Source: Bacteroidales bacterium
GTDB taxonomy: Bacteria; Bacteroidota; Bacteroidia; Bacteroidales; UBA932
Direction: 5' to 3'
NCBI GenBank assembly: GCA_017962375.1
Contig: JAGCVJ010000014.1
Span: 42,790-106,789 of the forward strand
Length of the DNA stretch: 64,000 bases
How positions within the stretch are numbered: position 1 is the first letter of the stretch; every line of letters begins with the position of its first letter. Shown one piece after another: positions 1 through 20,737 of the stretch. The notes below the pieces were generated by a model that saw only the letters and a program-made list of their open reading frames with translations, had not been told where the DNA came from and did not search any database. Made by a program: the position numbers and the translations under genes.

Positions 1-1870
1 TCTGAGGATTGGCAGCCCAAGTCTTCCCTCGGTCCTCAAAGCTTGCCATTTCCATAGGATCAGGACTGTATGGTCCCGGGATAGCCTCGCTGCTTCCCAT
101 CGTTGATGCATACAGCGGATATGCCACCCAAAGGCAGGTGTACATGCTGTACTGGTACATGTATGTATAATTGCGGTCTCCGTCTGCAAAGAAGGTGCTT
201 GTGAAGTAGTCTGAGCCTGTTTGAGATGCCGGAAGCTCAAGCCAACCGTTGATTGCCTGGCTTCCACCTTCTCCAGGTTCCTGGCTTACTGCAAGTTCTA
301 CAGAAGATGCTCCTGTATAATTAAGCGTAATGGTGCCGGTCCTTGAATTGGCGCCCGCTGCCTGTGCCGCTACATTAAACGTTATGTTATTGCCGCTTAC
401 TGCAACATTGGTTATCCAGGAAGCATTTGAAGTTGCTGTCAGAGTTACTCCCGATACCGGATTTGTAATCGTATAGCTTGCTGTCTGCGAACCGCCGGCC
501 TTACCTACCACTACAGGGTTGGAGGAGGTGATGCTGATGGCAGGGCCTGTCGGGCCAGATCCCTCCGCGATATACAGAGCCACAGGCTTCTGGCTGGAAG
601 TGTAGCAGCAGAATCGCGGGCTGCTCTGATTGTACTGGAGGGTTCTTGTTGTGGCATTGCCGCAGGCAATCGTAGCCACTCCGCTGCTGATGGAAATGTT
701 CCAGTTATAAGCATCTGCCTGCTCTATGCTGGTATTGCCACTATCCCAGGCCAGATAATTGCCGTAATTGACATCGCCGGATTTATCGTTCTGGATAGTC
801 CAGGAACTTCCATTCTTCTTTAACTTGACAGGAAGCACAGTACTTGTATTGTCCAACACGATAGTATTGCCTGTCTTGGTGATATTTTCACTAGTATGGA
901 TTGTTCCGCTCAAGCCCCCCATGGCTTTATCGAATCCGGAAGCGGCGATGATATAAGTTCCTTCAACCAGGCCGGACTGATTCTGTACCAGAGTATAGGT
1001 TACCGACGTGGAAACCGGAGTTGCATAGCCGCTCATGTTCATTCCGAATCTCGTCATCTTGCCGATCGAGAAGCTCAGAGTTCCTGAGAAGGCGCTTTCA
1101 GGCTTGGTATATGTGTTCTGGTCCGTTGAAACCACCACGCTTGAGAAACCAGCATTCTCTACCGGCATCGCTGTGAAATAAACAGGGAAAGTTCCGTCAG
1201 AAGGAACAACGGCATCGTCATAATTCAACGTTATCTTCTTGCCTCCGTTGGCATAAGTTCCAGCATCGTCGCCAGAAACCACATAATAACCGGTGACTAT
1301 CTTGTCGAATGTAACCTCAACTCTCTTGATTTTCTCGCCCGGAACAAGGCCTTTCAACGTCATCTTGTTAACGGTAATGATTCTCTGCATCATGAACTGC
1401 AGCGAGTTAAGAGCCGTAGCGGATGTTATTTCATCGGTTATCATTCCATCTGCATCCGGGTCATAGGAAGACTCTCCAGGGCTCTGAGTATCCTGAATCT
1501 TTATGTTTCCCTTGTTGCTGAATTCCTTGGCAAACCTTGCCGAATAAACATATTCGTCAGCCTGTACAGTAGCAAACTCCACTGTAAGGTCGATTCTTTT
1601 CATATCGGCGCTATAGTCAATTTCGGTAATGGTTCCCAAAGTCCCGTTCTCATAAATCCTGAAGTATTCGTCATCGCCTTCAGACCAAACATATGAAGCT
1701 TTGTCGTCTCCTTCAACCAATGACGTTTTGGTGTCTGCACCCTTGGTAAAAGAAACCTTGACAGTCCTCTTGTAAACCTCCGGCTGAGGTTCAGACTTGT
1801 CCTTTGCGCATCCCAGCAGCATCGCTGAGACAGCTGCTATCAAACCTATTTTGCAAAATATTCTTTTCAT
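1..1870 (-). CDS. Surface lipoprotein A, 3-prime end cut by window edge: pilin-like N-domain, shared mid module, BACON-like Ig domain, then start of a DNA/RNA non-specific endonuclease-like domain
   Basis: Hand translation from the ATG at 1868-1870 gives MKRIFCKIGLIAAVSAMLLGCAKDKSEP (lipobox LLGC). The frame stays open to position 1, so there is no stop and the ORF is absent from the track. Mid module ends RTLQYNQSSPRFCCYTSSQKPVALYIAEGSG. BACON-like stretch: GGSQTASYTITNPVSGVTLTATSNASWITNVAVSGNNITFNV..RTGTITLNY. The last residues, INGWLELPA..DRNYTYMYQYSMYTCLWVAYPL, resemble the N-terminal part of Endonuclease_NS lipoproteins. Confidence 0.6.
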   Translation of the reverse strand, partial: MKRIFCKIGLIAAVSAMLLGCAKDKSEPQPEVYKRTVKVSFTKGADTKTSLVEGDDKASYVWSEGDDEYFRIYENGTLGTITEIDYSADMKRIDLTVEFATVQADEYVYSARFAKEFSNKGNIKIQDTQSPGESSYDPDADGMITDEITSATALNSLQFMMQRIITVNKMTLKGLVPGEKIKRVEVTFDKIVTGYYVVSGDDAGTYANGGKKITLNYDDAVVPSDGTFPVYFTAMPVENAGFSSVVVSTDQNTYTKPESAFSGTLSFSIGKMTRFGMNMSGYATPVSTSVTYTLVQNQSGLVEGTYIIAASGFDKAMGGLSGTIHTSENITKTGNTIVLDNTSTVLPVKLKKNGSSWTIQNDKSGDVNYGNYLAWDSGNTSIEQADAYNWNISISSGVATIACGNATTRTLQYNQSSPRFCCYTSSQKPVALYIAEGSGPTGPAISITSSNPVVVGKAGGSQTASYTITNPVSGVTLTATSNASWITNVAVSGNNITFNVAAQAAGANSRTGTITLNYTGASSVELAVSQEPGEGGSQAINGWLELPASQTGSDYFTSTFFADGDRNYTYMYQYSMYTCLWVAYPLYASTMGSSEAIPGPYSPDPMEMASFEDRGKTWAANPQ

Positions 1871-1880
1871 GGCAGACATT

Positions 1881-2003
1881 TTAAAAATCACCTTCATCAT
1901 CGTAATCGTCGTCCGGAATAGTATTAGTACTCTGGGCAATGCAATTTTCTGTGCAAACGGCAAAGACCCTGCACTTTGGAACGGAGTATTTCTCCCGCTC
2001 CAT
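1881..2003 (-). CDS. Small acidic ORF A-prime (40 aa), 10 nt upstream of lipoprotein A
   Basis: Hand translation: MEREKYSVPKCRVFAVCTENCIAQSTNTIPDDDYDDEGDF. Shares the Y-x-x-P-x-C-[KR]-V-[YF] core and an acidic aromatic C-terminus with the other cassette ORFs. No signal peptide. Confidence 0.5.
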   Translation of the reverse strand: MEREKYSVPKCRVFAVCTENCIAQSTNTIPDDDYDDEGDF

Positions 2004-2137
2004 TTTGTTAAGGCAAATTAATTTCATCAATTAAAAAATTCTTTTTCCGACCCCAATCACTCAAAATCTGGCCCCGCAAAGTGATGCAAGTTAACAAAAA
2101 ATTCTTTTGGTTCTTTCTTTTCTCAGCCCCAGAAACA

Positions 2138-2171
2138 AAGAAGTCCGGAACCTGATTGTTTCGGACTTCTT
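2138..2171 (-). terminator. Hairpin downstream of lipoprotein B
   Basis: AAGAAGTCCG, a 14-nt loop, then CGGACTTCTT. On the minus strand it is followed by TGTTTCT, a weak U-tract. Confidence 0.45.
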
Positions 2172-2193
2172 GCATCACGACAAAAATCGTGTT

Positions 2194-4029
2194 TTATTTA
2201 GGAGCGCCAGCTCCAGCCTGGGCAATATACAGAAGAACTTCCTCTGTATTCTGCCAAACTCCGTCTACCATATTATAGCAGTAGAACAACTGCATATAGC
2301 CGCTTCTGCCAGAGCTTGAAGTATTCTGAGGAAGAGTAATAGTAAGTGTTCCCGTATTTCCAGATACTGAGTTGCTGGTAGTAAGAGGAATATTATAAGT
2401 AGAAACAGGACCCGACTGCGGCTGGATCTCTCCGTCAGCAGCTGGATACTTGATCTCGTAAGTAACGGTATAGGTACCGCCTGCTGCAGGCAGATACATT
2501 GTGTTGCCTACATAAACCATCGGCTCATATCCTGAAGGAGTGTTGACTCCTGAGGTGAAACGGAATTCAGGAACCGGAACAATTAGCGGATCACCTTCGC
2601 CAGTGCCTTCAAGTTTGTAGATTGCCAACGCTTCTGAAGCCAAGAAGGCATTGTCCATAAAGAATTCTTTATTATTATGATGATAACTCAGATACTTAAA
2701 TCGGCTCGCAGTATTATACGGGGTCATAAAGGCTTCGCCGTTTTCTTCCAGATGAACTTCCCAGCTAATGCCCTTCTCAGTCTCAGTAGAAGAACAGTTA
2801 TACAAATAAGTCCACTGGCTATAGTTGGAGCTAGGAGAAGAAGTTATCAAGGCGCCAATATACTTGTTGGCAAACTCCCCATTCTTGCACTCGAGCATAA
2901 CTGTATTCTTGCCGCTTCCCTTCTTCAGGGTGAATACCTGAACATCATCGCCAGGATTCTCGATAGTGGCCTTGTCTGAACTCTTAACGATATCAGCCTC
3001 TTTTCTCCAAGGGTAAGACCACATTTCTGTTGCCATTGCCTTGTCGTAAACGGTTGACGCAATCACGAACTCAGAGCCTGCGGTAAGCTCAGAATAATCG
3101 GTGACAAGCTTATACTGCAGAGGCTCTGGAGTGATGCCGCTCATGTTGAGATTGAAGGATGCAACCTGTCCCATCTTGAAATTGCCCTTTCCAGAAGGGA
3201 ATGTAACTTCCTTGGTGAAAACTCCTGCATCGGTCTTAACCTTTACAGTAAGTGTCTTGCCTTCCAGGTTTACAGGAAGAACTGAGAACCAGAACACCTT
3301 GCTGGCGTTGCTCTCTGCAGAAAGCTTGGAAGGATTGAGAGTCAGATACTTGTTCTGCTCAAATCCACCGGTGTAATACTCGTTTTCAGGATACATGGAG
3401 TTTCCTGTCAGGTACTCGGTAGAAGAAAGCTCAATGCTCTTGATGGTAACATCCTCAGGGAAGTTCTTGAGCATGAATTTTCCGTATGCTGCAATGTGGG
3501 AGAACTTGAGAGTTATCTTCTCAGGCATTGCGTTGGCAACAATAGCATGGTCAAGCGATGCAAACAGAATATGCGCTGCCTCATCGACAGATGTCATAGT
3601 AGGAGTCTGCTCCGAAGGAACTGCAAATCCCAATCCCCATCCGCCGTTATTTCCTGTGAAAGCGGTAGCAGGACTGACAGCCTGAAGCCAAAGCTCTGTG
3701 TCATCCTGTGGAAGATTGCTGAACTGAGCGTCAAAAGAAGCGGTTTTGCCGTCTCCTGAAGGAATGACGGTTGCCTCGTCAGACCAGTTTACGTTCAAGC
3801 TGAAGATAACCTTAACTTTCTGGTCTGCAGACCATACGGTTGGATAACCCTCAGATGTCTTGTCGCCGAAGTAAGTCTTTGTAGAAGGCTCCTGGGTCTG
3901 GGCGTTGAAGCTGATTTTAACAGCCTGCCTTTCCTGCTCTTTTGCAAGAGGAGAACTATCCTTGCTGCAGCTGATGAATGAAGTTGCAACTACTGCAACT
4001 ACTGCGAATAAACTGAAATACTTTCTCAT
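2194..4029 (-). CDS. Modular surface lipoprotein B: pilin-like N-domain, mid module, Ig/BACON-like C-terminus
   Basis: ORF track, 611 aa. Lipobox FISC followed by SKDSS. N-domain is paralogous to C, D and E (FSHIAAYGKFMLKNFPE, SNASKVFWFSV, FPSGKGNF). Mid module ends ALAIYKLEGTGEG. Confidence 0.85.
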   Translation of the reverse strand: MRKYFSLFAVVAVVATSFISCSKDSSPLAKEQERQAVKISFNAQTQEPSTKTYFGDKTSEGYPTVWSADQKVKVIFSLNVNWSDEATVIPSGDGKTASFDAQFSNLPQDDTELWLQAVSPATAFTGNNGGWGLGFAVPSEQTPTMTSVDEAAHILFASLDHAIVANAMPEKITLKFSHIAAYGKFMLKNFPEDVTIKSIELSSTEYLTGNSMYPENEYYTGGFEQNKYLTLNPSKLSAESNASKVFWFSVLPVNLEGKTLTVKVKTDAGVFTKEVTFPSGKGNFKMGQVASFNLNMSGITPEPLQYKLVTDYSELTAGSEFVIASTVYDKAMATEMWSYPWRKEADIVKSSDKATIENPGDDVQVFTLKKGSGKNTVMLECKNGEFANKYIGALITSSPSSNYSQWTYLYNCSSTETEKGISWEVHLEENGEAFMTPYNTASRFKYLSYHHNNKEFFMDNAFLASEALAIYKLEGTGEGDPLIVPVPEFRFTSGVNTPSGYEPMVYVGNTMYLPAAGGTYTVTYEIKYPAADGEIQPQSGPVSTYNIPLTTSNSVSGNTGTLTITLPQNTSSSGRSGYMQLFYCYNMVDGVWQNTEEVLLYIAQAGAGAPK

Positions 4030-4036
4030 TTTAATT

Positions 4037-4042
4037 TCCTCC
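4037..4042 (-). promoter_or_regulatory. Shine-Dalgarno-like GGAGGA, 7 nt before the ATG of lipoprotein B
   Basis: Minus strand reads CTTTAAAATCAGAGGAGGAAATTAAAATG. The stop of the small ORF lies 8 nt upstream of the GGAGGA. Confidence 0.5.
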
Positions 4043-4049
4043 TCTGATT

Positions 4050-4187
4050 TTAAAGATCACCCCAGTCCTCTTCTGGTGAAGGGTCAACCTCGTCGCCTGA
4101 GCTCATTGTGGCGATAGTGCCCTCTAATTTAACGGAATACACTTTGCAAAAAGGCTTAGCATATTCCTCTCTCTTGTGTGTTATCAT
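4050..4187 (-). CDS. Small acidic ORF B-prime (45 aa)
   Basis: MITHKREEYAKPFCKVYSVKLEGTIATMSSGDEVDPSPEEDWGDL. This is the 3-prime part of track ORF 4050..4286. The internal ATG at 4187 is preferred because of homology with D-prime and E-prime, and because the promoter-like box lies downstream of the longer start. Confidence 0.6.
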   Translation of the reverse strand: MITHKREEYAKPFCKVYSVKLEGTIATMSSGDEVDPSPEEDWGDL

Positions 4188-4255
4188 AATTGTTATACGT
4201 ATAATAATATATTTTTCAACTAGTATTCTTCGCAGAAAATCGCGAAAAAGCGGCG

Positions 4256-4264
4256 CAAAGTTTA
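4256..4264 (-). promoter_or_regulatory. Imperfect Bacteroidetes -7-like box (TAAACTTTG) upstream of B-prime
   Basis: Minus strand CTAAACTTTGCGCCGCTTTTTCG. The context matches the box upstream of D-prime (GCTAACTTGCGCCGCTTTTTTCG). Confidence 0.4.
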
Positions 4265-4272
4265 GAATAAAA

Positions 4273-4310
4273 GTCCAAAAAAGCAAGAGCTCGGCGCAAT
4301 ACCGAGCTCT
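4273..4310 (-). terminator. Intrinsic terminator of lipoprotein C
   Basis: AGAGCTCGG, a 7-nt loop, then CCGAGCTCT. Followed on the minus strand by TGCTTTTTTGG. Lies 32 nt after the stop codon. Confidence 0.75.
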
Positions 4311-4341
4311 ATTCCATTTAGAAATCTCAAAAAGAGGTAAG

Positions 4342-5664
4342 TTAGTTCTCGTAGGTTACATCGATATTGTAAGCCTTAACTCCACTGTAAATGTTAGTAA
4401 CAATTATTGTTAAAACTTTTCCTGTTTCTACTGTCGTTGAACTAACAGTCACATCAGGCGTACCCCAAAGTGATCCGCTTCCTACAGCAGTGTCACCTAC
4501 CTTCAAGGTTATTAAGCCATCCGTATCATCGTCAACTCCGCCCAATTTGATAGATAGACTCTTAATTTTTGCAGATCTCTCAAGCGTCGTGGTAAATGTT
4601 ATTGAGCCGGCAGCCCAATGCTCATCGCCAATAATGCTGAAATCAGTCTCCTGATCATAATCAGGGTTCTGAGTAGTGGTAATAGTCCAAGTATTTCCCT
4701 GGCTATCATTACCCGTAACTGTAGCTGCATTAATCTTGGTGCGACCGGTTCCGCTGCCAAATTGAATCGTTGCTGTCTTTTCAACAAGAGGCATTTCGAT
4801 AGTGAATGAAGCAACCCTTCCGGCCTGGAAATTACCTTTTTCTGCAGGGAAAGTGATGGTCTTAACATAATCCCCTACATTGGTGTGTACAGTAACTTTC
4901 AGGTTCTTGCCCTGCAGATCAACAGGCTTAACAGCAAACCAGAAAACTTTGCTTGCATTGCTCTCGGCAGATATCGCTGAGACATTAAGGCTAATAGTCT
5001 TAGAAGCGGTTTTATCTGCATAAGTTCCAGTTGCAGGATAGAAATAAACACTTCCTGCAATATTCTCGTCTGCCTCAAGGTCAATGCCAGAGATTGTTAC
5101 ATCCTCAGGGAAATCTTTGAGTGTAAATCTTCCGTAAGCCGCAATGTGAGAGAAAGAAAGAGATACATTATCAGGGAAAGTAGTAAATGTTGCAGACTTG
5201 GCGGCCATAATGTGAGCAGCTTCATCTACAGAGCTCATGGTCGGAGTCTGAGTTGCAGGAAATACAACTTCAACACGACTAGATGCAGCTTCCCAGGAAC
5301 TAGCGGCTACAGCTGGGCTGAGAGCATAGAACACATAGTTTCCACTGCCATCATCTGTGACCTCAGCATTGAAAGTAGCAGTCTTGCCGTCTGCAGAAGG
5401 AGTTACATCTGCCTGAACGGCATTGGCATAGTTAAGAGCAACGCTAACCTTCTGGGTTGAAGTCCAAATAGTTGGATAACCTGACGAAGTCTTGTCACCG
5501 AATTGAGTCTTAGTAGCTGGGTTAGAAGATTTAGCAATGAAGGTTACCTTTTTGGCTATAGAATCTGAAAGATTCTCCACATCTTCATTTTTGCTGCAAC
5601 TTGCCACAGTCAATCCAGCAACGGCTGCAAGGCATAAAAAACTAAAAAACTTGTTCATTTTCAT
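4342..5664 (-). CDS. Modular surface lipoprotein C: pilin-like N-domain plus a short C-terminal beta-rich module, no mid module
   Basis: ORF track, 440 aa. Lipobox VASC followed by SKNEDVEN. N-domain close to D (SVDEAAHIMAAKSATF, LKVTVHT, TITFPAEKGNFQAG). The GGAGGA position favours the second ATG at 5658. Confidence 0.85.
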   Translation of the reverse strand: MKMNKFFSFLCLAAVAGLTVASCSKNEDVENLSDSIAKKVTFIAKSSNPATKTQFGDKTSSGYPTIWTSTQKVSVALNYANAVQADVTPSADGKTATFNAEVTDDGSGNYVFYALSPAVAASSWEAASSRVEVVFPATQTPTMSSVDEAAHIMAAKSATFTTFPDNVSLSFSHIAAYGRFTLKDFPEDVTISGIDLEADENIAGSVYFYPATGTYADKTASKTISLNVSAISAESNASKVFWFAVKPVDLQGKNLKVTVHTNVGDYVKTITFPAEKGNFQAGRVASFTIEMPLVEKTATIQFGSGTGRTKINAATVTGNDSQGNTWTITTTQNPDYDQETDFSIIGDEHWAAGSITFTTTLERSAKIKSLSIKLGGVDDDTDGLITLKVGDTAVGSGSLWGTPDVTVSSTTVETGKVLTIIVTNIYSGVKAYNIDVTYEN

Positions 5665-5670
5665 TCCTCC
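5665..5670 (-). promoter_or_regulatory. Shine-Dalgarno-like GGAGGA before lipoprotein C
   Basis: Minus strand TTTAAAATTATGGAGGAATGAAAATGAAC. The spacing fits the second ATG. Confidence 0.45.
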
Positions 5671-5676
5671 ATAATT

Positions 5677-5733
5677 TTAAAGATCATCCCAGTCTTCTTC
5701 TGGTGAAGGGTCAACTTCGTCGCCAGAGCTCAT
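5677..5733 (-). pseudogene. Truncated small ORF C-prime: only the conserved 18-codon tail remains (MSSGDEVDPSPEEDWDDL)
   Basis: The tail is near-identical to B-prime, D-prime and E-prime. The upstream in-frame sequence (..DSSLTLCHFSASVA) has lost the EEY..P.C.VYS half. It may still be translated from its own ATG. Confidence 0.35.
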
Positions 5734-5757
5734 AGCAACACTGGCGGAAAAGTGACA

Positions 5758-5765
5758 CAAAGTTA
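5758..5765 (-). promoter_or_regulatory. Exact TAnnTTTG -7 box (TAACTTTG), 24 nt upstream of the C-prime ATG
   Basis: Minus strand TTTAACTTTGTGTCACTTTTCCGCC. Confidence 0.5.
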
Positions 5766-5800
5766 AAGAAGAGTCAACTAAAATTGCAAATCACAGTAAA

Positions 5801-5831
5801 ACAAAAAACGGGCAGGATTTTGTCCTGCCCG
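5801..5831 (-). terminator. Intrinsic terminator of lipoprotein D
   Basis: CGGGCAGGA, a 5-nt loop, then TCCTGCCCG. Followed on the minus strand by TTTTTTGTTTT. Confidence 0.8.
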
Positions 5832-5856
5832 CCCTAAAAGTACTATTCGAAAAAAA

Positions 5857-7956
5857 TTATAATGCAAATGATGCGCTCTTAAACTCAAAGTATCTGTTAT
5901 TATTGCCATTTACATGCACATTGTAGGTAATTTTGTAATAACAGTTGCTCCAGTCTTGTCCGCTAGGTTTTGTGATTGTTACAGATCCGTTTGCGCTGAA
6001 AGAAGGAGTTGCAGTGTAAACTGGATTTGAGAAGTCTGCGTTCTTTGATACAACAACAGTCATGGAATTTACCGTAATCTTGCTAGCAGCGCCATGAGAA
6101 ATTACAATAGAGCTGAAATCTTGCTCAAAAGCTGTTGTACTGAAAATTGTCCTGTCTACATCATCTAGCTGTTTGCCACCAATTCTCCACGGATTTTCTG
6201 TAGTGTTACCCATAACTTTCCAAGAGATATCTCCCTGAGTTATATTTGATTCTGTAGCGTAGCCATTGTCGCCACCAGTTACGGAACCGTCAAGAGTATA
6301 ACCGGAAACGAATGTTGCTGAAATTTCAACATCTGATGTTCCAACAGTGAAGGTTGCAACAGCAGTGTTGCCGCTAACTGTTGCACCAGTTACATACCAT
6401 GAGGAGAATGCGGAACCGGAAGCTGCAGTTGCAGTCAGAGTAACAGTTTTGCCTTCCTGAACCTTAGTGCCAGAAGCTATCTCGTCTCCATCAACGGTAA
6501 CAACGAAGGAGCCTCCAGTCAGTGGCTGGGTGTAGGTAATGGTATGTTTAACTTCGGCTACCAATGGATCACCGGAACCGGTGCCTTCAAGCTTGTAGAT
6601 GGCAACATCCTGCTGACCTGAAGCATAGCAAGCAAAAAGTTTCGCACCATTGTTGAATCTCAGAATGTTGCTTGAATACTGCTTGGCGGATAACTCAGCT
6701 ACACCATCACTGCCAAGGATTACGCCGAATGAAGTATTGTCACCTTTTGTGCTAAAGGTCTTCAAATAATTGCCCCCATTAGCAGAACCAATATAATAGT
6801 CCTCAACAAGGATACCTCCGTTGTTGCCTTTGAATGCAACGGTATTTGTTATCGTGCCTGCCTCAAGGAGGAATGTCTGAACGGCATCACCAGGGTTGAC
6901 AACAGTGTTTGTACCCTTGGTTATAGCAGCGGCAGCTCTGTTATTACCGTTGTCGGTAGTGCCAAGAGCATAATCTGCTTCATTTGCTACAATGATAACC
7001 TCAGAATTAGCGGTAAGCTCGTCATAGCTGGTAACAAGTGTATAAATCTTGTCAGCAGCTGGGGTTATTCCATTAAAGTCGATGTTGAAGGCTGCAACCT
7101 TTCCAGCCTGGAAATTGCCCTTGCCGGAAGGGAAAGTGATGGTCTTTACGTAATCGCCTCCATCGGTATGAACGGTGACTTTCAGGTTCTTGCCCTGCAG
7201 GTCAACTGGCTTGATTCCAAACCAGAACACCTTGCTTGCATTGCTCTCGGCAGAAATCGCTGAGGAGCTAATGCTAACGGTCTTTGCTGCAGAATTGTCT
7301 GCATACTCGCCGGTCTCAGGATAGAAGTAAACTCTTCCAACAATGTTCTCGTCTGCGGTAAGATCAACGCCTGTGATAGCAACTGTCTCAGGGAAGTTCT
7401 TGAGCATGAACTTTCCGTATGCTGCAATATGAGAGAAAGTCAAAGAAACTGAAGACTCTTCTGAAGGGAACTCAGTAAATGTAGCGGACTTGGCTGCCAT
7501 AATGTGAGCTTTCTCGTCAACAGAACCCATTGTAGGTGCCTGATTTGCCGGGAAGTCTACCTGAACGCTCTGATAACTAGCGTTCCAGGAAATAGCGGCA
7601 ACGGCTGGACTGAGAGCGTAGAAAACATAATTACCGCTTTCGTCATCATTAACTGTTACGGTGAAAGTAGCGGTCTTGCCATCTGCAGAAGGGGTTACGG
7701 TAGCCTGCTTTGCATTGGCAAAGTTAAGAGCTATGCTAACCTTCTGGTTGCTTGTCCACACTGTTGGATAACCAGCGGAAGTCTTATCACCAAAAATGGT
7801 CTTGGTGTCTGGATTAGCAGATTTAGCGTTGAAGCTAACCTTCTTTACAGGGGATGTAGGAAGATTCTCTTCTATTTCATTTTTGCTGCAGCTGGCCAAT
7901 GTCATGGCAGCAATGGCAGCAAGGCATAAATAATTAAAGAACTTTTTCATTTTCAT
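5857..7956 (-). CDS. Modular surface lipoprotein D: pilin-like N-domain, mid module, InlB-B-repeat-like module, C-terminal beta-rich module
   Basis: ORF track, 699 aa. Lipobox LASC followed by SKNEIEEN. Mid module ends VAIYKLEGTGSG. Repeat-like segment: HTITYTQPLTGGSF..GSAFSSWYVTGATVSGN. The second ATG at 7950 is favoured by the GGAGGA position. Confidence 0.85.
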   Translation of the reverse strand: MKMKKFFNYLCLAAIAAMTLASCSKNEIEENLPTSPVKKVSFNAKSANPDTKTIFGDKTSAGYPTVWTSNQKVSIALNFANAKQATVTPSADGKTATFTVTVNDDESGNYVFYALSPAVAAISWNASYQSVQVDFPANQAPTMGSVDEKAHIMAAKSATFTEFPSEESSVSLTFSHIAAYGKFMLKNFPETVAITGVDLTADENIVGRVYFYPETGEYADNSAAKTVSISSSAISAESNASKVFWFGIKPVDLQGKNLKVTVHTDGGDYVKTITFPSGKGNFQAGKVAAFNIDFNGITPAADKIYTLVTSYDELTANSEVIIVANEADYALGTTDNGNNRAAAAITKGTNTVVNPGDAVQTFLLEAGTITNTVAFKGNNGGILVEDYYIGSANGGNYLKTFSTKGDNTSFGVILGSDGVAELSAKQYSSNILRFNNGAKLFACYASGQQDVAIYKLEGTGSGDPLVAEVKHTITYTQPLTGGSFVVTVDGDEIASGTKVQEGKTVTLTATAASGSAFSSWYVTGATVSGNTAVATFTVGTSDVEISATFVSGYTLDGSVTGGDNGYATESNITQGDISWKVMGNTTENPWRIGGKQLDDVDRTIFSTTAFEQDFSSIVISHGAASKITVNSMTVVVSKNADFSNPVYTATPSFSANGSVTITKPSGQDWSNCYYKITYNVHVNGNNNRYFEFKSASFAL

Positions 7957-7962
7957 TCCTCC
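7957..7962 (-). promoter_or_regulatory. Shine-Dalgarno-like GGAGGA before lipoprotein D
   Basis: Minus strand TTTAAAATTATGGAGGAATGAAAATGAAAAAG. Confidence 0.45.
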
Positions 7963-7968
7963 ATAATT

Positions 7969-8112
7969 TTAAAGATCACCCCAGTCTTCTTCTGGTGAAG
8001 GGTCAACTTCATCGCCAGAGCTTAAAGTAGCAATGGTGCTCTCGAAATTTACGGAATACACTCTGCAAACTGGAGCAGTGTACTCCTTTTCCGTGTTAAA
8101 ATTGAACTTCAT
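7969..8112 (-). CDS. Small acidic ORF D-prime (47 aa)
   Basis: Hand translation: MKFNFNTEKEYTAPVCRVYSVNFESTIATLSSGDEVDPSPEEDWGDL. Confidence 0.6.
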   Translation of the reverse strand: MKFNFNTEKEYTAPVCRVYSVNFESTIATLSSGDEVDPSPEEDWGDL

Positions 8113-8163
8113 TTTTATAAATATGTATTATTATTTTTGTTCGATTAGGTCGAAAAAAGCGGC

Positions 8164-8171
8164 GCAAGTTA
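8164..8171 (-). promoter_or_regulatory. Imperfect -7-like box (TAACTTGC) upstream of D-prime
   Basis: Minus strand GCTAACTTGCGCCGCTTTTTTCG. Context conserved with the B-prime box. Confidence 0.35.
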
Positions 8172-8264
8172 GCATAATAAATTTGACACTTCCAAATTTT
8201 TTGGCGGAAAAACTCAAAAAATACCACTCAGCGGTGCATTACAGGCCTGTTTTGTAACATCTAT

Positions 8265-8302
8265 GACAAAAACAAAAGCGGGCAGGAATATCCCGCCCGC
8301 TT
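8265..8302 (-). terminator. Intrinsic terminator of lipoprotein E
   Basis: AAGCGGGCAGG, a short loop, then CCCGCCCGCTT (one mismatch). Followed on the minus strand by TTTTGTTTTTGTC. Confidence 0.75.
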
Positions 8303-8324
8303 AAATGCTAATACGTTCCAGAAT

Positions 8325-11246
8325 CTATTCGGCATTAACTCCCCAAACTACAAAACGTTTCCCTGTTGTTGCTGTAAGAGTCAATTGCTTATCCTGAGTC
8401 ATACCAGAAAGCGATATCTCAAAATAGTAATTTGCAGGTGCTCCACTCAAAGTAAATGGAGTATTATTACTGATTCCAGCATCACTAGTCAAAGACAAAA
8501 CAGATGGTGTTGCATCAACACCAGACAAAGTAATCTTGACTGTTTCGTTATTCCAAGCAGCGATATGAACATGAAGTTTGGTTGTTCCAGAAGGAACAGT
8601 AATTATCATTGCGCCAGCCTTACTGCTTGTTCCACACTTTATTGCATTATATTCGGTATTTGAAATAACAACTTTTGCTGCAGTTGCACTAGTTCCACCG
8701 CTAGTGCTTAGTGTTACATTACTTGTATTAATATCAGAATAATCCCCACCTGCCTCTGAGTCAAACCTTGCTGCTATAGAAACATCTGACGTTCCCATAG
8801 TGAAAGTAGCAGTTTCAGTGTTTCCGCTTACGGTAGCTCCAGAAACTGTCCAGCTAGTAAAGTTGTAGCCAGAAGCTGGAGTTGCAGTAAGGGTAACTAC
8901 TGTACCTTCCAAAACTTCAGTTCCTGAAGATATGGCAGAACCATTAACCTTTACGGTGAATGAGCCTCCAGCTGATGGCTGAGTAAATGTAACAGCATGT
9001 GCAGTAGGAGTATGGGCTTGGGTAATGGTAATGCCATCGGTAGACCAAACCTTTATCTGGTCATTGTTGTTATACCATGCTATAGTTCCCACTGCAGTAA
9101 TAACATCTCCTTCGGCAAGTCCGGAAGGAACTCCTGCGGCAGCATAAACCACATATGTATTGCTTCCATTCTTGACAGAAATGTTCTTATCGTTAATTCC
9201 GGTCACCTCAAGGTCATTGACCTGAACATATGCACTCTGATATGTACTGAGATTCCCAACAAGCTGAGAGAGTGTGAATACCTGAGGAGCTACCGTTGCC
9301 TGCGAACCGGTAAAGTTGGCAGTCAGGGCTGTGATTTCAGCACAATTGTGGTACATCGTAGCTGTTACGGTTATTGGACCTGACAATGTCTGACCCTGTA
9401 GCAAACCATGATCTGTTACAAAAACCAATGTAGAACCTGTAGCGTCTTTGATTACTGCATTCTTTGTATCAGGAACAAATGAAATTACTGCATTGGTAAG
9501 AGTTCCGGAATAATCACCTGCAGTAGCTGCCAGAGCGTTGAGTTGGGCAACTGTGGTGAAATCTGAACCAGGAGTGCTTACTTCACACTCTTTCTCTGCG
9601 ATATCACTCATGTTATAACCTGGAGCTCCGGCAAATGCCTTGACTGTGCAAGTTTCAGTGATTGTAAACGGCTCAGTATATTCCTGAGTAGTTCCGATAG
9701 GATTACCGTCATCATCGATACCAGGAGTAGTTCCATCAGTGGTATAGCCGATTCTTGCACCTGATGCGGAGCAAGTGATGGTAACGGTATTCGTTGAAGA
9801 ATTGAACGATATTTCTGGAGTTGGACACTTAGGATCATCAATCAGAGATGAGCCTTCTCCACTTCCTTCGAGTACATATACAACAACTTCCTTCTGACCA
9901 GAAGCATAGCAAGAGAAGATTGGAGGATTATTGCCGCTATTGTATTTAATAATATTACGAGTATTTTCCCCGCTAGCTTTCAATACGGTATAACCATCCT
10001 CAATTGTTACGCTGAAAGAAGCATTTCCATCCTTGGTGTCCTGACTCTTAAGATAATTTGAACCAGAACTTGCAGCATAAATATACTTATCTGTCTGATC
10101 ACCGTTTACGCACTTGAATGCAACTGTGTTGGATTCAGTACCGGCCTCAAGAGTGAATATCTGAACAGCATCGCCAGGATTGGTAATAGTTTTAAGATCT
10201 TCGCTCTTATCAACATCAGTATGAGCTCTATTATTACCATTCTGAGTAGTGCTCATTGCTTTTGCATAATCCTTAGCAACAATTATTGCCTTTGCACCAG
10301 GAAGCAATTGCTTCTTGTCAGTGAGGATTTTATAAACCTTGTCTTCTCCAGGAGTGATGCCTGCCATGCTGATTGTAAATGTAGCAACTTTTCCAGCCAG
10401 GAAGTTACCCTTACCGGTAGGGAATGTGATGGTCTTTGCATATACTCCAGCATCTGTATGAACAGCAACCTTAAGAGTCTTACCCTCCAGATTTACAGGC
10501 TTAAATGAAAACCAGAAATCGGTGGTGTTATTCTTATCTATCTCAAGGTCTGAAACATCAAGATTAACGCTGTTGCCAGCAGAATTTACTTCATAAGACC
10601 CGTCTGAAGGTTTGAAACGGAATCTTCCTGCAACCTGCTCCTGTGCGGTAAGCTCAATGCTGTTGATTGTAACAGTTTCAGGCAGGTTCCTGAACTGGAA
10701 CTTACCATAAGCAGCAATGTGAGAGAAAATCAGTGTAACAGGAGTAGTCTCCTCTGGGAACTCAGAGAATGTAGCTGACTTGGCCGCCATTATATGAGCC
10801 TTTTCATCAACGGAATTCAGGGTTGGTTTCTGTGATGCTGGGAAGTCAACCTGAACGTTGCTGTTATCTGCATTTGCATTCCAGTTTATCACTGAAGCAG
10901 CAGGGCTTAAGGCATAGAAAACATAACTATCCTGTCCGTCATCTTCAATGGTAGCATTGAAAGTAGCGGTTTTACCATCTGAGCTAGGAGTTACCTCTGC
11001 CTGCTTAGCAGAACCGAAGTTAAGGGAAATGCTAACCTTCTCGTTTTCTGTCCAAACGGTAGGATAACCAGCATCTGTCTTGTCGCCGAAAGCGGTCTTG
11101 GTGGAAGGATTGGAAGCCTTTGCACTGAAAGAGATCTTCTTTACAGATTTTTCAGGAAGGTTCTCAACAGTCTCGTTTTTGCTGCAGCTTGCCAGTGTCA
11201 GACCAGCTATGGCAGCAAGGCATAAGTAATTAAAGAACTTTTTCAT
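8325..11246 (-). CDS. Modular surface lipoprotein E, the largest: pilin-like N-domain, mid module, CHB_HEX_C-like segment, OB-fold-like (DUF5689-type) module, InlB-B-repeat-like module, C-terminal module
   Basis: ORF track, 973 aa. Lipobox LASC followed by SKNETVEN. Segments: ARIGYTTDGTTPG..TVKAFA; DFTTVAQLNAL..VIKDATGS..IKVWSTDGITI; HAVTFTQPSAGGSF..GYNFTSWTVSGATVSGN. Confidence 0.85.
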   Translation of the reverse strand: MKKFFNYLCLAAIAGLTLASCSKNETVENLPEKSVKKISFSAKASNPSTKTAFGDKTDAGYPTVWTENEKVSISLNFGSAKQAEVTPSSDGKTATFNATIEDDGQDSYVFYALSPAASVINWNANADNSNVQVDFPASQKPTLNSVDEKAHIMAAKSATFSEFPEETTPVTLIFSHIAAYGKFQFRNLPETVTINSIELTAQEQVAGRFRFKPSDGSYEVNSAGNSVNLDVSDLEIDKNNTTDFWFSFKPVNLEGKTLKVAVHTDAGVYAKTITFPTGKGNFLAGKVATFTISMAGITPGEDKVYKILTDKKQLLPGAKAIIVAKDYAKAMSTTQNGNNRAHTDVDKSEDLKTITNPGDAVQIFTLEAGTESNTVAFKCVNGDQTDKYIYAASSGSNYLKSQDTKDGNASFSVTIEDGYTVLKASGENTRNIIKYNSGNNPPIFSCYASGQKEVVVYVLEGSGEGSSLIDDPKCPTPEISFNSSTNTVTITCSASGARIGYTTDGTTPGIDDDGNPIGTTQEYTEPFTITETCTVKAFAGAPGYNMSDIAEKECEVSTPGSDFTTVAQLNALAATAGDYSGTLTNAVISFVPDTKNAVIKDATGSTLVFVTDHGLLQGQTLSGPITVTATMYHNCAEITALTANFTGSQATVAPQVFTLSQLVGNLSTYQSAYVQVNDLEVTGINDKNISVKNGSNTYVVYAAAGVPSGLAEGDVITAVGTIAWYNNNDQIKVWSTDGITITQAHTPTAHAVTFTQPSAGGSFTVKVNGSAISSGTEVLEGTVVTLTATPASGYNFTSWTVSGATVSGNTETATFTMGTSDVSIAARFDSEAGGDYSDINTSNVTLSTSGGTSATAAKVVISNTEYNAIKCGTSSKAGAMIITVPSGTTKLHVHIAAWNNETVKITLSGVDATPSVLSLTSDAGISNNTPFTLSGAPANYYFEISLSGMTQDKQLTLTATTGKRFVVWGVNAE

Positions 11247-11252
11247 TTTAAT

Positions 11253-11258
11253 TCCTCC
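11253..11258 (-). promoter_or_regulatory. Shine-Dalgarno-like GGAGGA, 6 nt before the ATG of lipoprotein E
   Basis: Minus strand TTTAAAATTTACAGGAGGAATTAAAATGAAAAAG. Confidence 0.5.
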
Positions 11259-11266
11259 TGTAAATT

Positions 11267-11410
11267 TTAAAGATCACCCCAGTCTTCCTCTGGTGAAGGG
11301 TCTACCTCGTCGCCAGAACTCATAGTAGTAATGGCGCCTTCCAAATTGATAGAGTATACTTTGCACTGTGGTGCAAGATACTCTTCTGATTTGATGAACT
11401 TGAGTTGCAT
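11267..11410 (-). CDS. Small acidic ORF E-prime (47 aa)
   Basis: Hand translation: MQLKFIKSEEYLAPQCKVYSINLEGAITTMSSGDEVDPSPEEDWGDL. Starts only 35 nt after the stop of lipoprotein F, with no hairpin between them. Confidence 0.6.
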   Translation of the reverse strand: MQLKFIKSEEYLAPQCKVYSINLEGAITTMSSGDEVDPSPEEDWGDL

Positions 11411-11445
11411 TGTGTCTGTTATTTAATTTTTAGCTAAAAATATAA

Positions 11446-13611
11446 TTATTCAAATGTAACCTTGATGCCCTTAATACGTCTGTGTCCTGTAGTTCCGGTT
11501 ACTGTAAATGTAACAGCGCTAGAAGATCCAGTCCAAACACCAGTAGAATTATTATAAGTTACAACATCAGTAGAAATAGCATTTGATCCGTCACCAGAAC
11601 CGAAGGTAAGCTCAATCATGCTTATCTTCTTGCTAGAGTCGTTAGCGGTAACAGTGAAGTAGCCGCCACCGTAAACTCTTACAGCAGTTCCTGTAGTGTA
11701 GTATTTAGGAGTGTTGCTGTTGGTACCCTTGTCAAATGTGACAGTTGCATTGGTGCCTGTTACGGTCTTTACTTCCTGTGCATTTGAATAACCTGTAGAC
11801 AAGTCAAAGGTCTCGGTGAGAACGCTTGAAGACTCAAGGTTAGCTACAATGTTGATGTCAGCAGTACCTACCTTGAAGGTTACAACATGGGAAGTGGTGC
11901 TGCTGAGATTTACTGCATTGGTAATGCTCCAGGTGGTGAAGTTATAACCGCCAGTCAATACTATCTCGGCCTTTACTTCAGTGCCTTCAATATACTTGGC
12001 GCCTGAAGTGATTTCAGTTCCGCCAACAGTTACTTTGATAGAACCGCCGGCTTCCGGCTGGGTAAAGTTGATGGCGTGCTCTGTTGGAGTGTGCTCGGTA
12101 ATGGTTAAGTCATCAGCCTTCCAAACCTTGAGCTCTTTGAATACAGTATCGTCCTTCTTAAACTGTGTAACGGTTCCGATTACTGTAATCTTATCACCTA
12201 CAACACAGGTTGGAGTGCCATAGTTGCAGTATACGATGAAACCGGTATACTCTCCATCTGTAACGGTAACGTTCTTTCCATCAACAGCAGTAACTTCAAC
12301 ATTTTCAAGCTTAGCGTATGTGTTCTGATAAGTATTATACTGCCAGCCCATATTGAAGATAGTCAATACCTGAGGATCAACTACAGCGCCTTCACCAGTG
12401 AATGTGGCATCCATGGTGGTGATCTCAGAATAGAGGCTCTGGTAATTCTGGAGGGTAACTGTGATGTTGCCGGTATAGGTCTGGCCCTGCTTCAAGCCGT
12501 GGCCGGACTTGTAGTACATAACTGAACCTGTTCCGTCTGTAATGATGGCAACAGTAGTATTAGGAACAAATGAAACAACTGCATTGGTGAGCTTACCTGT
12601 CTTGGATGTTGGGGTTTCGCCAACTTCATCAGCAAGTTCGTTGAGCTCTGCAACAGTTGTGAAGTCGAAAGTTTCGAGAGTCTTGTCGTAAGCGAAAGCT
12701 ATCTTCTTCATCTTGCCAGCCTTGAACTCATAGTCCTTGTCTGCAGAGATAACCTTTTCCTGAGCTCCGTTGGATGCGGTAACGGTGATGGTGAAGTCAT
12801 CGCCTTCGTTAACAACGAAAGGCTTAACTGCAAGATAGAAAGTGGCCTTTTCGCCTGCTGCTATTGCCTCGCCGCTGTTTACAACCAGGTTAGCTACGTT
12901 GCTTACATAGGTTTCGCCGCTTGGGGTGAAGCCAGGATTGTAAGGATCTGTGAAATCGATGTAGTAGGTACCTACGATATCAACTCCGTCGGCTGTGATG
13001 GAAATGCCGGAAACTGTAATAGCTTCTCCTTTCTTTGTAGCGTTCTCAACCTCAACCTCAATAAGAGAGGAAAGATGCCTCATCTGGATAACAGGCCTTT
13101 CGTCGCCAGAAATTTTAGATGCTACACCTGCGATAGGATAGTTGTTGCCGGAAATATGAGCAGTGCTGTTGTTGCCCTTCTGAGTCTGGTTGCCCTTTGC
13201 GGTGGATCCTACAGTCACATAACCTGCAGATGTGTTGGCAGGAGTGGTGATCTGCTTTGTGTAAGGATAGAAAGCGTACCAGTTGTAGGTCTTGGTTTCA
13301 TCAAAGCTGGCATCAAGGGTTCCTGTGAAGGTGGCGGTTGCGCCTGCAGCTGATGTCTTGAACTGGCCGTCGCTGACATAAGCAGGAGTATCCTCGCCAG
13401 CAACATTGTGGAACAGGTTGATAGCGTCATTGGCAGCCCACAGCGTCTTCATGCCGTCATTGGTGGTCTTGGTGTTGACGCCGTTAAGAGTTACTGAGAA
13501 ATCGGTCTTCTCGATTTCCTTCATTCCGGTATCGTTCTTAGAACATCCGGTGAATGCAATGGCAGCTACTGCCAAAGCACTCAAAACGTAAGATTTGAAT
13601 TTCTTTGTCAT
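11446..13611 (-). CDS. Modular surface lipoprotein F: divergent pilin-like N-domain, OB-fold-like module, InlB-B-repeat-like module, C-terminal module
   Basis: ORF track, 721 aa. Lipobox FTGC followed by SKNDTG. Segments: NTKTTNDGMKTLWAANDAINLF, YAFYPY, MRHLSSLIEVEV; FTTVAELNEL..AIITDGTGS..LKVWKADDLTI; HAINFTQPEAGGS..GYNFTTWSI; C-terminus PKYYTTGTAVRVYGGG. Confidence 0.85.
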   Translation of the reverse strand: MTKKFKSYVLSALAVAAIAFTGCSKNDTGMKEIEKTDFSVTLNGVNTKTTNDGMKTLWAANDAINLFHNVAGEDTPAYVSDGQFKTSAAGATATFTGTLDASFDETKTYNWYAFYPYTKQITTPANTSAGYVTVGSTAKGNQTQKGNNSTAHISGNNYPIAGVASKISGDERPVIQMRHLSSLIEVEVENATKKGEAITVSGISITADGVDIVGTYYIDFTDPYNPGFTPSGETYVSNVANLVVNSGEAIAAGEKATFYLAVKPFVVNEGDDFTITVTASNGAQEKVISADKDYEFKAGKMKKIAFAYDKTLETFDFTTVAELNELADEVGETPTSKTGKLTNAVVSFVPNTTVAIITDGTGSVMYYKSGHGLKQGQTYTGNITVTLQNYQSLYSEITTMDATFTGEGAVVDPQVLTIFNMGWQYNTYQNTYAKLENVEVTAVDGKNVTVTDGEYTGFIVYCNYGTPTCVVGDKITVIGTVTQFKKDDTVFKELKVWKADDLTITEHTPTEHAINFTQPEAGGSIKVTVGGTEITSGAKYIEGTEVKAEIVLTGGYNFTTWSITNAVNLSSTTSHVVTFKVGTADINIVANLESSSVLTETFDLSTGYSNAQEVKTVTGTNATVTFDKGTNSNTPKYYTTGTAVRVYGGGYFTVTANDSSKKISMIELTFGSGDGSNAISTDVVTYNNSTGVWTGSSSAVTFTVTGTTGHRRIKGIKVTFE

Positions 13612-13622
13612 AACTGCTGATT

Positions 13623-13775
13623 TTAAGCATTCATAGGATCACCATCGTCTTCCCAGTCATCAATTGTGCCGTCTCCGCTGGCACAGATAATTCCCTCTGA
13701 CTCGAGGTCCAGGAATTCGATCTCAGGAGTCTCATAGAACTCCTTGATTCTCTGAACAGTAAAGTTTTTCTTCAT
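13623..13775 (-). CDS. Small acidic ORF F-prime (50 aa)
   Basis: Hand translation: MKKNFTVQRIKEFYETPEIEFLDLESEGIICASGDGTIDDWEDDGDPMNA. Stop lies 11 nt before the ATG of lipoprotein F. Confidence 0.5.
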   Translation of the reverse strand: MKKNFTVQRIKEFYETPEIEFLDLESEGIICASGDGTIDDWEDDGDPMNA

Positions 13776-13834
13776 AATATGTTAATGTTGTAATAATTCT
13801 ACTGCGCTCCGGGGGCAATACCCCATAGAGCATT

Positions 13835-20637: not shown

Positions 20638-20737
20638 GACGAGCGTATTGTTATTCCAACAAACAATAATTTGGCGAATATACTCAATTCTGCCCAAACG
20701 CCCAAAAACAACTTTCAGTTGAAGTTCAAAAACCGTC

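Follow-up and report, generated by a model that had tools for sequence, protein, structure and literature searches.

A tandem array of lipoprotein genes with a nuclease at its edge

We analysed a 64,000-nucleotide (nt) stretch from the genome of an uncultured, rumen-type Bacteroidales bacterium (assembly GCA_017962375.1, contig JAGCVJ010000014.1, positions 42,790 to 106,789 of the forward strand), hereafter called the window, and within it an array of paralogous lipoprotein genes that appears to combine a non-specific nuclease with putative nucleic acid-binding proteins. All feature coordinates are window positions, and the array occupies the minus strand of positions 1..13,800. Six lipoprotein genes lie there in tandem in the order F, E, D, C, B, A, the last of which crosses the window edge. 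A signal peptide and a lipobox cysteine are present in 6/6 paralogs, and pairwise BLASTP and phmmer comparisons showed that all six have an N-terminal domain of ~270 residues (N-domain) in common and differ in their C-terminal cargo modules. Each of the six is preceded by a small open reading frame (ORF) that ends 10-20 nt before the ATG and has an acidic and aromatic C-terminus.

The frame of paralog A (1870->2) is open for 623 codons and begins with a lipoprotein signal (MKRIFCKIGLIAAVSAMLLGC). A first reading made from the sequence alone, below called the sequence-only reading, had taken the end of this frame for the beginning of an Endonuclease_NS lipoprotein, with the catalytic part beyond the window edge and no catalytic domain in B-F. 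The peptide INGWLELPASQ...WVAYPLYAS corresponds to A residues 540-589 and is followed by 34 further residues before the edge. The in-window fragment by itself has no Endonuclease_NS match in Pfam and no match in PDB sequences, and the nuclease call can thus not be confirmed from the window alone. All three expectations were borne out by the complete protein and by the other paralogs. P0001, a protein of 818 residues that is flagged as encoded by the window's own sequence and is 100% identical to A over all 623 in-window residues, matches PF01223 (Endonuclease_NS) at residues 567-800 (E 2.8e-29, 102.8 bits versus a cut-off of 23), with ~57 residues of the domain inside the window, and no catalytic Pfam domain was found in B-F. 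The closest solved relatives of P0001 are Anabaena NucA (1zm8/2o3b, E 6e-12; 2o3b is the NucA-NuiA complex), and behind it come Serratia nuclease, EXOG and EndoG. In A, YARGHQIPNADR, TNSTPQ and WGKLED align with YARGH, TNMMPQ and WGNLED of NucA, and R652, G653, H654, N676 and E694 of P0001 are invariant in 14 orthologs; all of them are located at 652-694, past residue 623 and therefore past the window edge. H654 (of YARGH654Q) is presumably the catalytic histidine, N676 the metal-ligand asparagine and E694 the conserved glutamate. Judged from its sequence, the C-terminal domain of A is a NucA/Serratia-type beta-beta-alpha-metal non-specific nuclease in which the catalytic His, Asn and Glu are intact.

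The modules of A follow each other in the order N-domain, beta-trefoil, BACON-like domain and nuclease. The BACON-like domain, which the sequence-only reading had also recognised, is a borderline match to PF13004 (BACON) at residues 478-531, just above the cut-off of 25 bits in the fragment (25.2) and just below it in the full protein (24.1). We found ~40 more relatives of 770-1091 residues with the same architecture as P0001, some of them named 'DNA/RNA non-specific endonuclease' or 'endonuclease G' in their source; there is nothing unusual about the nuclease as such, for which automatic annotation already has a name. The downstream context of A was taken from the 89%-identical ortholog P0002, at whose locus the nuclease gene is the last of the array and unrelated genes come after it.

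Tandem-OB modules in paralogs E and F

The motifs quoted by the sequence-only reading for OB-like, DUF5689-type modules in E and F are present in the translations, and the modules, at E 556-752 and F 311-508, share 44% identity. An AlphaFold2 (AF2) model of E 556-752 (20 homologs; predicted local distance difference test, pLDDT, 95.5) contains two OB barrels. When the model was compared to the PDB with Foldseek, all 43 matches with E <= 1e-3 were HIN-200 proteins (p202, AIM2, IFI16, p204) aligned over the whole length, with 4jbm in first place. The TM-scores of these matches are low (0.31-0.41, at 11-16% identity) since the two barrels are oriented differently relative to each other. Behind HIN-200 came single-OB matches to YgiW, RPA, Ten1/Stn1 and the anticodon-binding domain of lysyl-tRNA synthetase.

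The family DUF5689 (PF18942) is of interest here through DdbD, which B. thetaiotaomicron encodes in its ddbABCDEF DNA-utilisation locus. According to PMC12478041, DdbD carries a DUF5689 annotation, is predicted to bind the substrate as partner of the TonB-dependent transporter DdbC, and has a model reported to resemble the dsDNA complex of p202 (PDB 4JBM); a DdbD homolog is required for natural transformation in Riemerella. A search with the OB alignment for homologous proteins gave 4 fragments, and an exhaustive profile search of representative proteins was used instead, which yielded 3,001 proteins with a tandem-OB module (E <= 0.001). The N-terminus is lipobox-like in 104/146 of the best-scoring ones, and the module is present in 2-4 copies in proteins of up to ~1,900 residues, often together with the same beta-trefoil as in the array (P0117-P0262). 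An alignment of 32 modules comprised E, F and 30 divergent relatives, and 5 of the 32 match DUF5689, the sole other such family being DUF4929 with one match. Three of the five exceed the Pfam cut-off of 28.6 bits (34.3, 35.3 and 31.9 bits, two of them over nearly the full model), and the same three modules score 34-60 bits with the profile derived from E and F. Moreover, hhalign aligned the broad module profile A6 over 146 columns with the DUF5689 domain of an Alistipes lipoprotein from locus L028 (96.5% probability, E 8e-10); this lipoprotein carries a full DUF5689 domain (E 1.9e-26, 93.7 bits) and is followed in frame by the nuclease. In total the DUF5689 Pfam model matched 6/66 of the proteins or isolated modules scanned. 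The modules of E and F are thus remote DUF5689 relatives, linked through intermediate sequences, and not members by the Pfam criterion: of the earlier assignment the tandem OB fold and the homology stood, while a direct Pfam match was not obtained.

As a side observation, the broad tandem-OB profile gave a weak and not significant match (E 0.09-0.12) to residues 19-110 of PDB 9sf9_A / 9sf8_A, a solved 'endonuclease/exonuclease/phosphatase domain-containing protein'; such an N-terminal match would fit an OB module placed before an endonuclease/exonuclease/phosphatase (EEP) nuclease.

Linkage of tandem-OB lipoproteins and nuclease in related genomes

Look-ups anchored on the tandem-OB lipoproteins P0091, P0095 and P0051 found an Endonuclease_NS gene as the next gene in 3/3 cases, in three unrelated neighbourhoods. 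In relatives with exactly the architecture of E or F the nuclease domain follows directly and in the same reading frame. Species-representative genomes were also scanned with the nuclease as query, which gave 35 loci from rumen Bacteroidales metagenome-assembled genomes (MAGs), Alistipes, Cryptobacteroides and Tidjanibacter. The closest of the rumen MAGs have the genes in the same order, E-D-C-B-A. No TonB-dependent receptor is adjacent in the related loci; the only one in L001 is located 6 kb downstream, past unrelated housekeeping genes.

In many of these loci a TGA closes the lipoprotein ORF, and with the next codon begins an open nuclease stretch in the same frame, which runs for 282-420 codons and starts with a Gly-rich linker. 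The scan contained 23 nuclease-only segments located after a long same-frame ORF, from 21 distinct loci, and 23/23 are separated from it by exactly one TGA (L004, L013-L023, L025-L029, L035, L037-L041; for example L022:12080-12082 in Alistipes putredinis DSM 17216). TGA accounts for 42% of the stops in long frames of these loci. In the three loci anchored on tandem-OB lipoproteins, the lipoprotein before the TGA carries the tandem-OB module. No signal peptide was found in the separately called nuclease ORFs that were read (L037, L039, L040, L041). The window has no such junction, A being a continuous fusion, and the stop codons of B-F are TAA or TAG.

A GC-rich hairpin begins 6-10 nt after the TGA in most junction loci. 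For the 48 nt behind the TGA the folding energy is -15 to -32 kcal/mol, compared to -6 to -19 for the Gly-rich linkers of stop-free fusions, and within one genome at equal GC the values are -20.0 after the TGA and -13.1 for the stop-free linker. Shuffle z-scores of the hairpin are weak (~-1.2 on average) because the sequence is GC-rich, and we regard the comparison with stop-free linkers as more telling. Neither an Rfam family nor a selenocysteine insertion sequence (SECIS) was detected in five loci, with nothing at E <= 1 around the L022 junction, and no tRNA-Sec or suppressor tRNA was found near the junctions. Selenocysteine at the TGA was considered and is unlikely, as there is no Rfam SECIS, no tRNA-Sec nearby and no redox context. 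A literature search found no description of such a TGA junction.

The junctions are candidates for programmed read-through of the UGA, or for its recoding in another way; this most economical reading would yield a minor isoform that bears the nuclease. A wider proposal, which we put at slightly under even odds, is that many Bacteroidales, among them rumen lineages, Cryptobacteroides, Tidjanibacter and Alistipes with the type strain A. putredinis DSM 17216, would append the nuclease to a lipoprotein of this family by programmed decoding of one in-frame UGA with a hairpin behind it, giving a short form without and a rarer long form with nuclease. The window genome would then represent the resolved version, with E and F as binders and A as constitutive fusion, and the small ORF would encode a dedicated cytoplasmic partner of the common lipoprotein chassis. 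If this is true, the short form would be a binder wherever the OB module is present.

Small acidic ORFs

The small ORFs encode 40-60 residues with tails such as …DDDYDDEGDF and …EEDWGDL. They conform to the pattern …Y.AP..(E/K)(V/I)..(V/I)..E.G…S…, behind which comes an acidic tail with an aromatic residue or Leu at its end, and were found across Bacteroidales families (L001-L044), and they are located 5' of almost every N-domain lipoprotein, whatever its cargo. In A. putredinis the small ORF is called 'hypothetical protein'. Comparison of the last 17 codons of eight 47-codon copies gave 129 synonymous-only versus 37 amino-acid-changing differences, an excess indicating that the peptide tail is under purifying selection. 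The small ORF of C has lost its N-terminal half and only …MSSGDEVDPSPEEDWDDL is left, just after the terminator of D; a C-like gene in L002 has no small ORF either, and L005 has a full copy. Reading through of the small ORF into the lipoprotein was considered and rejected, the two being in frame only for D and with differing offsets for A, B, E and F.

The sequence-only reading had suggested that the small proteins could act as mimics or as inhibitors in the manner of NuiA. As DNA mimics or NuiA-like inhibitors they would shield the cell against the nuclease. In the 2O3B complex the C-terminal residue of NuiA, placed at the catalytic metal, is partly what blocks NucA, and an acidic and aromatic tail under purifying selection would be compatible with such a role. 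However, the small ORFs precede all six paralogs, the nuclease-free ones included, and also N-domain lipoproteins with unrelated cargo in loci without any nuclease. The proteins are much shorter than NuiA (~135 residues) and have no signal peptide, whereas the nuclease is exported. The small protein of A has no match in PDB sequences at E <= 10 and hence no similarity to NuiA, and those small proteins that were tested have no Pfam or NCBIfam match. Since the small ORFs accompany the N-domain regardless of cargo, the NuiA-like role is not supported and is very improbable; the small ORFs are better described as translated partners of the N-domain chassis than of the nuclease.

The shared chassis and its cargo

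Identity between the N-domains is highest for C and D (71%), lower for E versus C or D (55-59%) and ~25% for A or F versus the others. The N-domain has no match in Pfam, NCBIfam or PDB sequences, and its profile found nothing significant among PDB sequences. In A, B, D and E it is accompanied by a further common module, which is predicted from its AF2 model (pLDDT 95.8) to be a lectin-like beta-trefoil. Foldseek matches are HA33, the lysenin C-terminal domain, CCL2, Rhizoctonia solani agglutinin and CNL (query-based TM-score, TMq, about 0.6; range 0.5-0.63 for HA33, lysenin, CCL2 and CNL), and the profile of the module matched fascin among PDB sequences at 4e-5. The module of A has no match to Pfam ricin (RicinB), and one relative weakly matches RicinB_lectin_2. 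A carbohydrate-binding type of assignment, in which the sequence-only reading saw a sign against a nucleic acid theme, was thus obtained for the beta-trefoil of these four paralogs.

Relatives with the N-domain carry other cargo as well, namely NAGPA phosphodiester glycosidase, Laminin_G_3 (LamG) or fn3 domains, with the small ORF present and no nuclease nearby, which indicates that N-domain and small ORF form a general chassis. The same beta-trefoil is also fused to Endonuclease I and to OB folds in relatives (P0108, P0107). In a separate metagenomic contig (L042; JGI 3300028048, Ga0256405_10004588) we noticed an array of N-domain lipoproteins with NAGPA domains, each with its small ORF, which adjoins genes for a GDSL lipase, GH97, GH20 and a histidine phosphatase; there the chassis serves a glycan-related function. 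The nucleic acid theme is accordingly one of the subset with nuclease or tandem-OB modules, in the window A, E and F. No nucleic acid-related feature was found in B, C and D; what they share is limited to the chassis and to modules of lectin-like or Ig-like type, and they need not act on nucleic acid.

Layout of the array and neighbouring genes

The features of the array are listed in Table 1. The hairpins 3' of C, D and E are strong and terminator-like, which makes the array look like a series of units of small ORF plus lipoprotein gene and not like one operon; each such pair looks like its own transcription unit.

Table 1. Features of the lipoprotein array in window coordinates
Feature	Positions	Strand	Basis
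Paralog A, residues 1-623 of the 818-residue lipoprotein nuclease	2..1870	-	Translation; P0001 100% identical
A, linker and start of Endonuclease_NS domain, residues 541-623	2..250	-	PF01223 at 567-800 of P0001
A, BACON-like Ig (immunoglobulin) domain, residues 478-531	278..439	-	PF13004, 25.2 bits fragment, 24.1 full protein, cut-off 25
A, predicted beta-trefoil lectin-like module, residues 291-447, also in B, D, E	530..1000	-	AF2, Foldseek, fascin profile match
A, copy of the N-terminal domain (~270 residues) common to the six paralogs	995..1798	-	Pairwise BLASTP and phmmer
Small acidic ORF 5' of A, MEREKYSVPKCRVF...DDDYDDEGDF	1881..2003	-	10 nt before the ATG of A; family pattern
Paralog B: N-domain, beta-trefoil, BACON-like C-terminus, no catalytic domain	2194..4029	-	Pfam, paralog comparison
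Small acidic ORF 5' of B, …SSGDEVDPSPEEDWGDL	4050..4187	-	Family pattern, codon comparison
Terminator-like hairpin 3' of C	4286..4310	-	
Paralog C: N-domain and C-terminal module of ~145 residues	4342..5664	-	BLASTP/phmmer among paralogs
Truncated small-ORF remnant 5' of C, only …MSSGDEVDPSPEEDWDDL left	5677..5760	-	
Terminator-like hairpin 3' of D	5805-5835	-	
Paralog D: N-domain, beta-trefoil, InlB B-repeat, C-terminal module	5857..7956	-	Pfam, paralog comparison
Small acidic ORF 5' of D	7969..8112	-	Family pattern, codon comparison
Terminator-like hairpin 3' of E	8276-8302	-	
Paralog E: N-domain, beta-trefoil, Fn3_assoc/CHB_HEX_C_1, tandem OB, InlB B-repeat, C-terminal module	8325..11246	-	
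E, tandem-OB (DUF5689-related, HIN-like) module, predicted, residues 556-752	8991..9581	-	AF2, Foldseek, profile links
Small acidic ORF 5' of E	11267..11410	-	Family pattern, codon comparison
Paralog F: N-domain, tandem OB, InlB-B-like repeat, C-terminal module	11446..13611	-	BLASTP/phmmer among paralogs
F, tandem-OB module, residues 311-508	12088..12681	-	44% identical to E module; in alignment A1
Small acidic ORF 5' of F, …GDGTIDDWEDDGDPMNA	13623..13775	-	Family pattern

The 10 largest other ORFs of the window were scanned as well. They are housekeeping or unrelated genes and encode an OstA-like protein, a peptidyl-prolyl isomerase, IMP dehydrogenase, polynucleotide phosphorylase, serine hydroxymethyltransferase, two met-zincins, alanyl-tRNA synthetase, LptF/G and a nucleoside transporter. 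The two met-zincin genes are neighbouring paralogs on the minus strand (36968-39517 and 39637-42252) with the domains DUF5118, DUF5117 and DUF4953. The nucleoside transporter, of the Na+-dependent NupC/CNT type (60642-62309), and IMP dehydrogenase (19147-20697), both on the minus strand, share the 64 kb with the array, which may be coincidence.

Proposed capture and cleavage of extracellular nucleic acid

Half of the array (A, E and F) looks built to catch and cut extracellular nucleic acid at the cell surface, a reading to which we assign a probability of about 60%. The array proteins would sit on the cell surface, where E and F would hold extracellular DNA or RNA through their tandem-OB module and A would cut the nucleic acid held by them; the cleavage products would be taken up by transporters encoded elsewhere. 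The division of labour would parallel that of a polysaccharide-utilisation locus (PUL), with E and F in the place of the SusE/F binders and A in the place of the SusG enzyme. Binding of DNA by the E and F modules is a prediction drawn from their modelled fold and family links. Compared to the surface nucleic acid apparatus initially proposed for the whole array, the idea is plausible for A, E and F and does not extend to B, C and D with their lectin-like beta-trefoil and Ig-like modules.

A number of observations weigh against this reading. Pfam searches with the E and F modules gave nothing at E <= 10, DUF5689 included, NCBIfam gave nothing for the isolated modules, member 1 of alignment A6 did not match DUF5689 either, and the narrow E/F profile A1 alone reached an hhalign probability of 15%. 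The DNA-binding surfaces of HIN and RPA are basic, whereas the modules are strongly acidic in both E (pI 4.5, net charge -8) and F (pI 4.4, net charge -12), the nuclease domain of A being neutral. Conservation in the module falls on D, T, H, G, Y, E, Q, N and W and not on K or R, a pattern that would suit a sugar site too. In the best 146 of the 3,001 representative proteins, this nuclease was found fused to the module without a stop in 0/146, and the commonest partners of the module are CHB_HEX_C_1/Fn3_assoc, Big_2 and BACON, which are typical of glycan-active proteins; occasional partners are tRNA_anti-codon OB folds and LTD and, once each, CBM_4_9 and dockerin. Regarding surface location, acidic residues appear only from position +4 after the lipobox cysteine (CSKNEDVEN, CSKNEIEEN, CAKDKSE), and the strict motif C(x/xx)(D/E)(D/E), the lipoprotein export signal as defined in PMC12478041, is not matched. 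A TonB-dependent or SusCD-like transporter was found in 0/10 of the largest other window ORFs. Finally, DNA binding by DUF5689 rests on structure and genetics.

Some of these points, namely the acidity of the tandem-OB modules and their partner domains, are in line with another explanation, according to which the paralogs are general modular surface adhesins or glycan binders. The N-domain would then be a stalk and the nuclease one interchangeable cargo, the OB modules would bind oligosaccharide, and the paralogs would not cooperate on nucleic acid. The lectin-like beta-trefoil of A, B, D and E fits this explanation, as do the N-domain relatives with NAGPA, Laminin_G_3 and fn3, some of which stand beside GH97, GH20 and GDSL lipase genes and are free of nuclease. 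Yet the tandem-OB subset is tied to the nuclease by all three unbiased look-ups and by the in-frame junctions, and dsDNA binders are its best structural matches. The module also has homology to DUF5689, on which DNA uptake and utilisation depend (PMC12478041). We consider the adhesin explanation unlikely, with a real chance of being right nonetheless.

Alternatively, the array might serve DNA import of the ddb or natural transformation type, with E and F handing DNA to a DdbC-like transporter elsewhere, for nutrition or competence, and A trimming the substrate. The joint action of DUF5689/DdbD with DdbC and the essential role of a homolog in Riemerella transformation, both reported in PMC12478041, would agree with this, and so would a nucleoside transporter and IMP dehydrogenase in the same window. 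What speaks against it is the lack of a TonB-dependent receptor among the scanned window ORFs and its distance from the array in L001. Besides, the OB module is located inside a large multi-domain lipoprotein and is not free-standing like DdbD, and the nuclease class differs, being Endonuclease_NS here and EEP in BT3560-3563/ddb. Import of this type is distinctly improbable.

It is only recent work that connects the use of extracellular DNA by gut Bacteroidales with one type of locus, ddb, which has EEP nucleases, a TonB-dependent transporter and DUF5689. If A, E and F do catch and cut nucleic acid, the array points to a second arrangement that is widespread in rumen and gut Bacteroidales and in which a NucA-type nuclease and DUF5689-related modules are placed on paralogous lipoproteins with no dedicated transporter. 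With the profile search the reach of DUF5689 grows to 3,001 or more representative proteins (E <= 0.001). DNA binding by the E and F modules would provide a handle on surface nucleic acid capture and bear on nutrition, biofilm matrix turnover and gene transfer.

Comparison with known systems

The predicted module of A, B, D and E has the fold of the ricin-B / HA33 beta-trefoil lectins, with no Pfam ricin match in A. With NucA and the Serratia marcescens nuclease (PF01223; 1ZM8, 2O3B, 1QL0) A shares the full-length profile match, the ARGH…N…E motifs including the 'YARGH' variant of NucA, and the secreted, sugar-non-specific type. In contrast to these nucleases, its domain makes up the C-terminal quarter of an 818-residue lipoprotein behind the N-domain, beta-trefoil and BACON-like domain, and a NuiA-like gene was not found.

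Like the SusE/F/G proteins of PULs, the array consists of side-by-side surface lipoproteins of which some would only bind and one would be catalytic; a Sus-type analogy is also used for ddb in PMC12478041. Unlike Sus systems it has no SusC/D pair, its paralogs have one N-domain in common, and each has its own terminator and upstream small ORF. Measured against a PUL- or ddb-like locus, a transporter with its substrate-binding partner is not present among the 10 largest other window ORFs.

The E/F module resembles the HIN-200 proteins (AIM2, IFI16, p202, p204) in its two consecutive OB barrels of together ~190 residues. It differs from them in being acidic and not basic and in lacking sequence-level membership, which would leave a fold analogy or a very remote homology only. 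Compared to DdbD, the E/F modules have no Pfam match, are embedded in large lipoproteins without an adjacent DdbC, and are partnered with Endonuclease_NS instead of EEP. With DdbD and DUF5689, as described in PMC12478041, they share the predicted tandem-OB HIN-like fold, the top match p202 (4JBM), homology through intermediates, and the association with secreted or surface nucleases in Bacteroidales. What is new is the tandem-OB link, the transporter-less paralog array and the features in relatives, which together would represent a variant of the known Bacteroidales DNA-utilisation theme.

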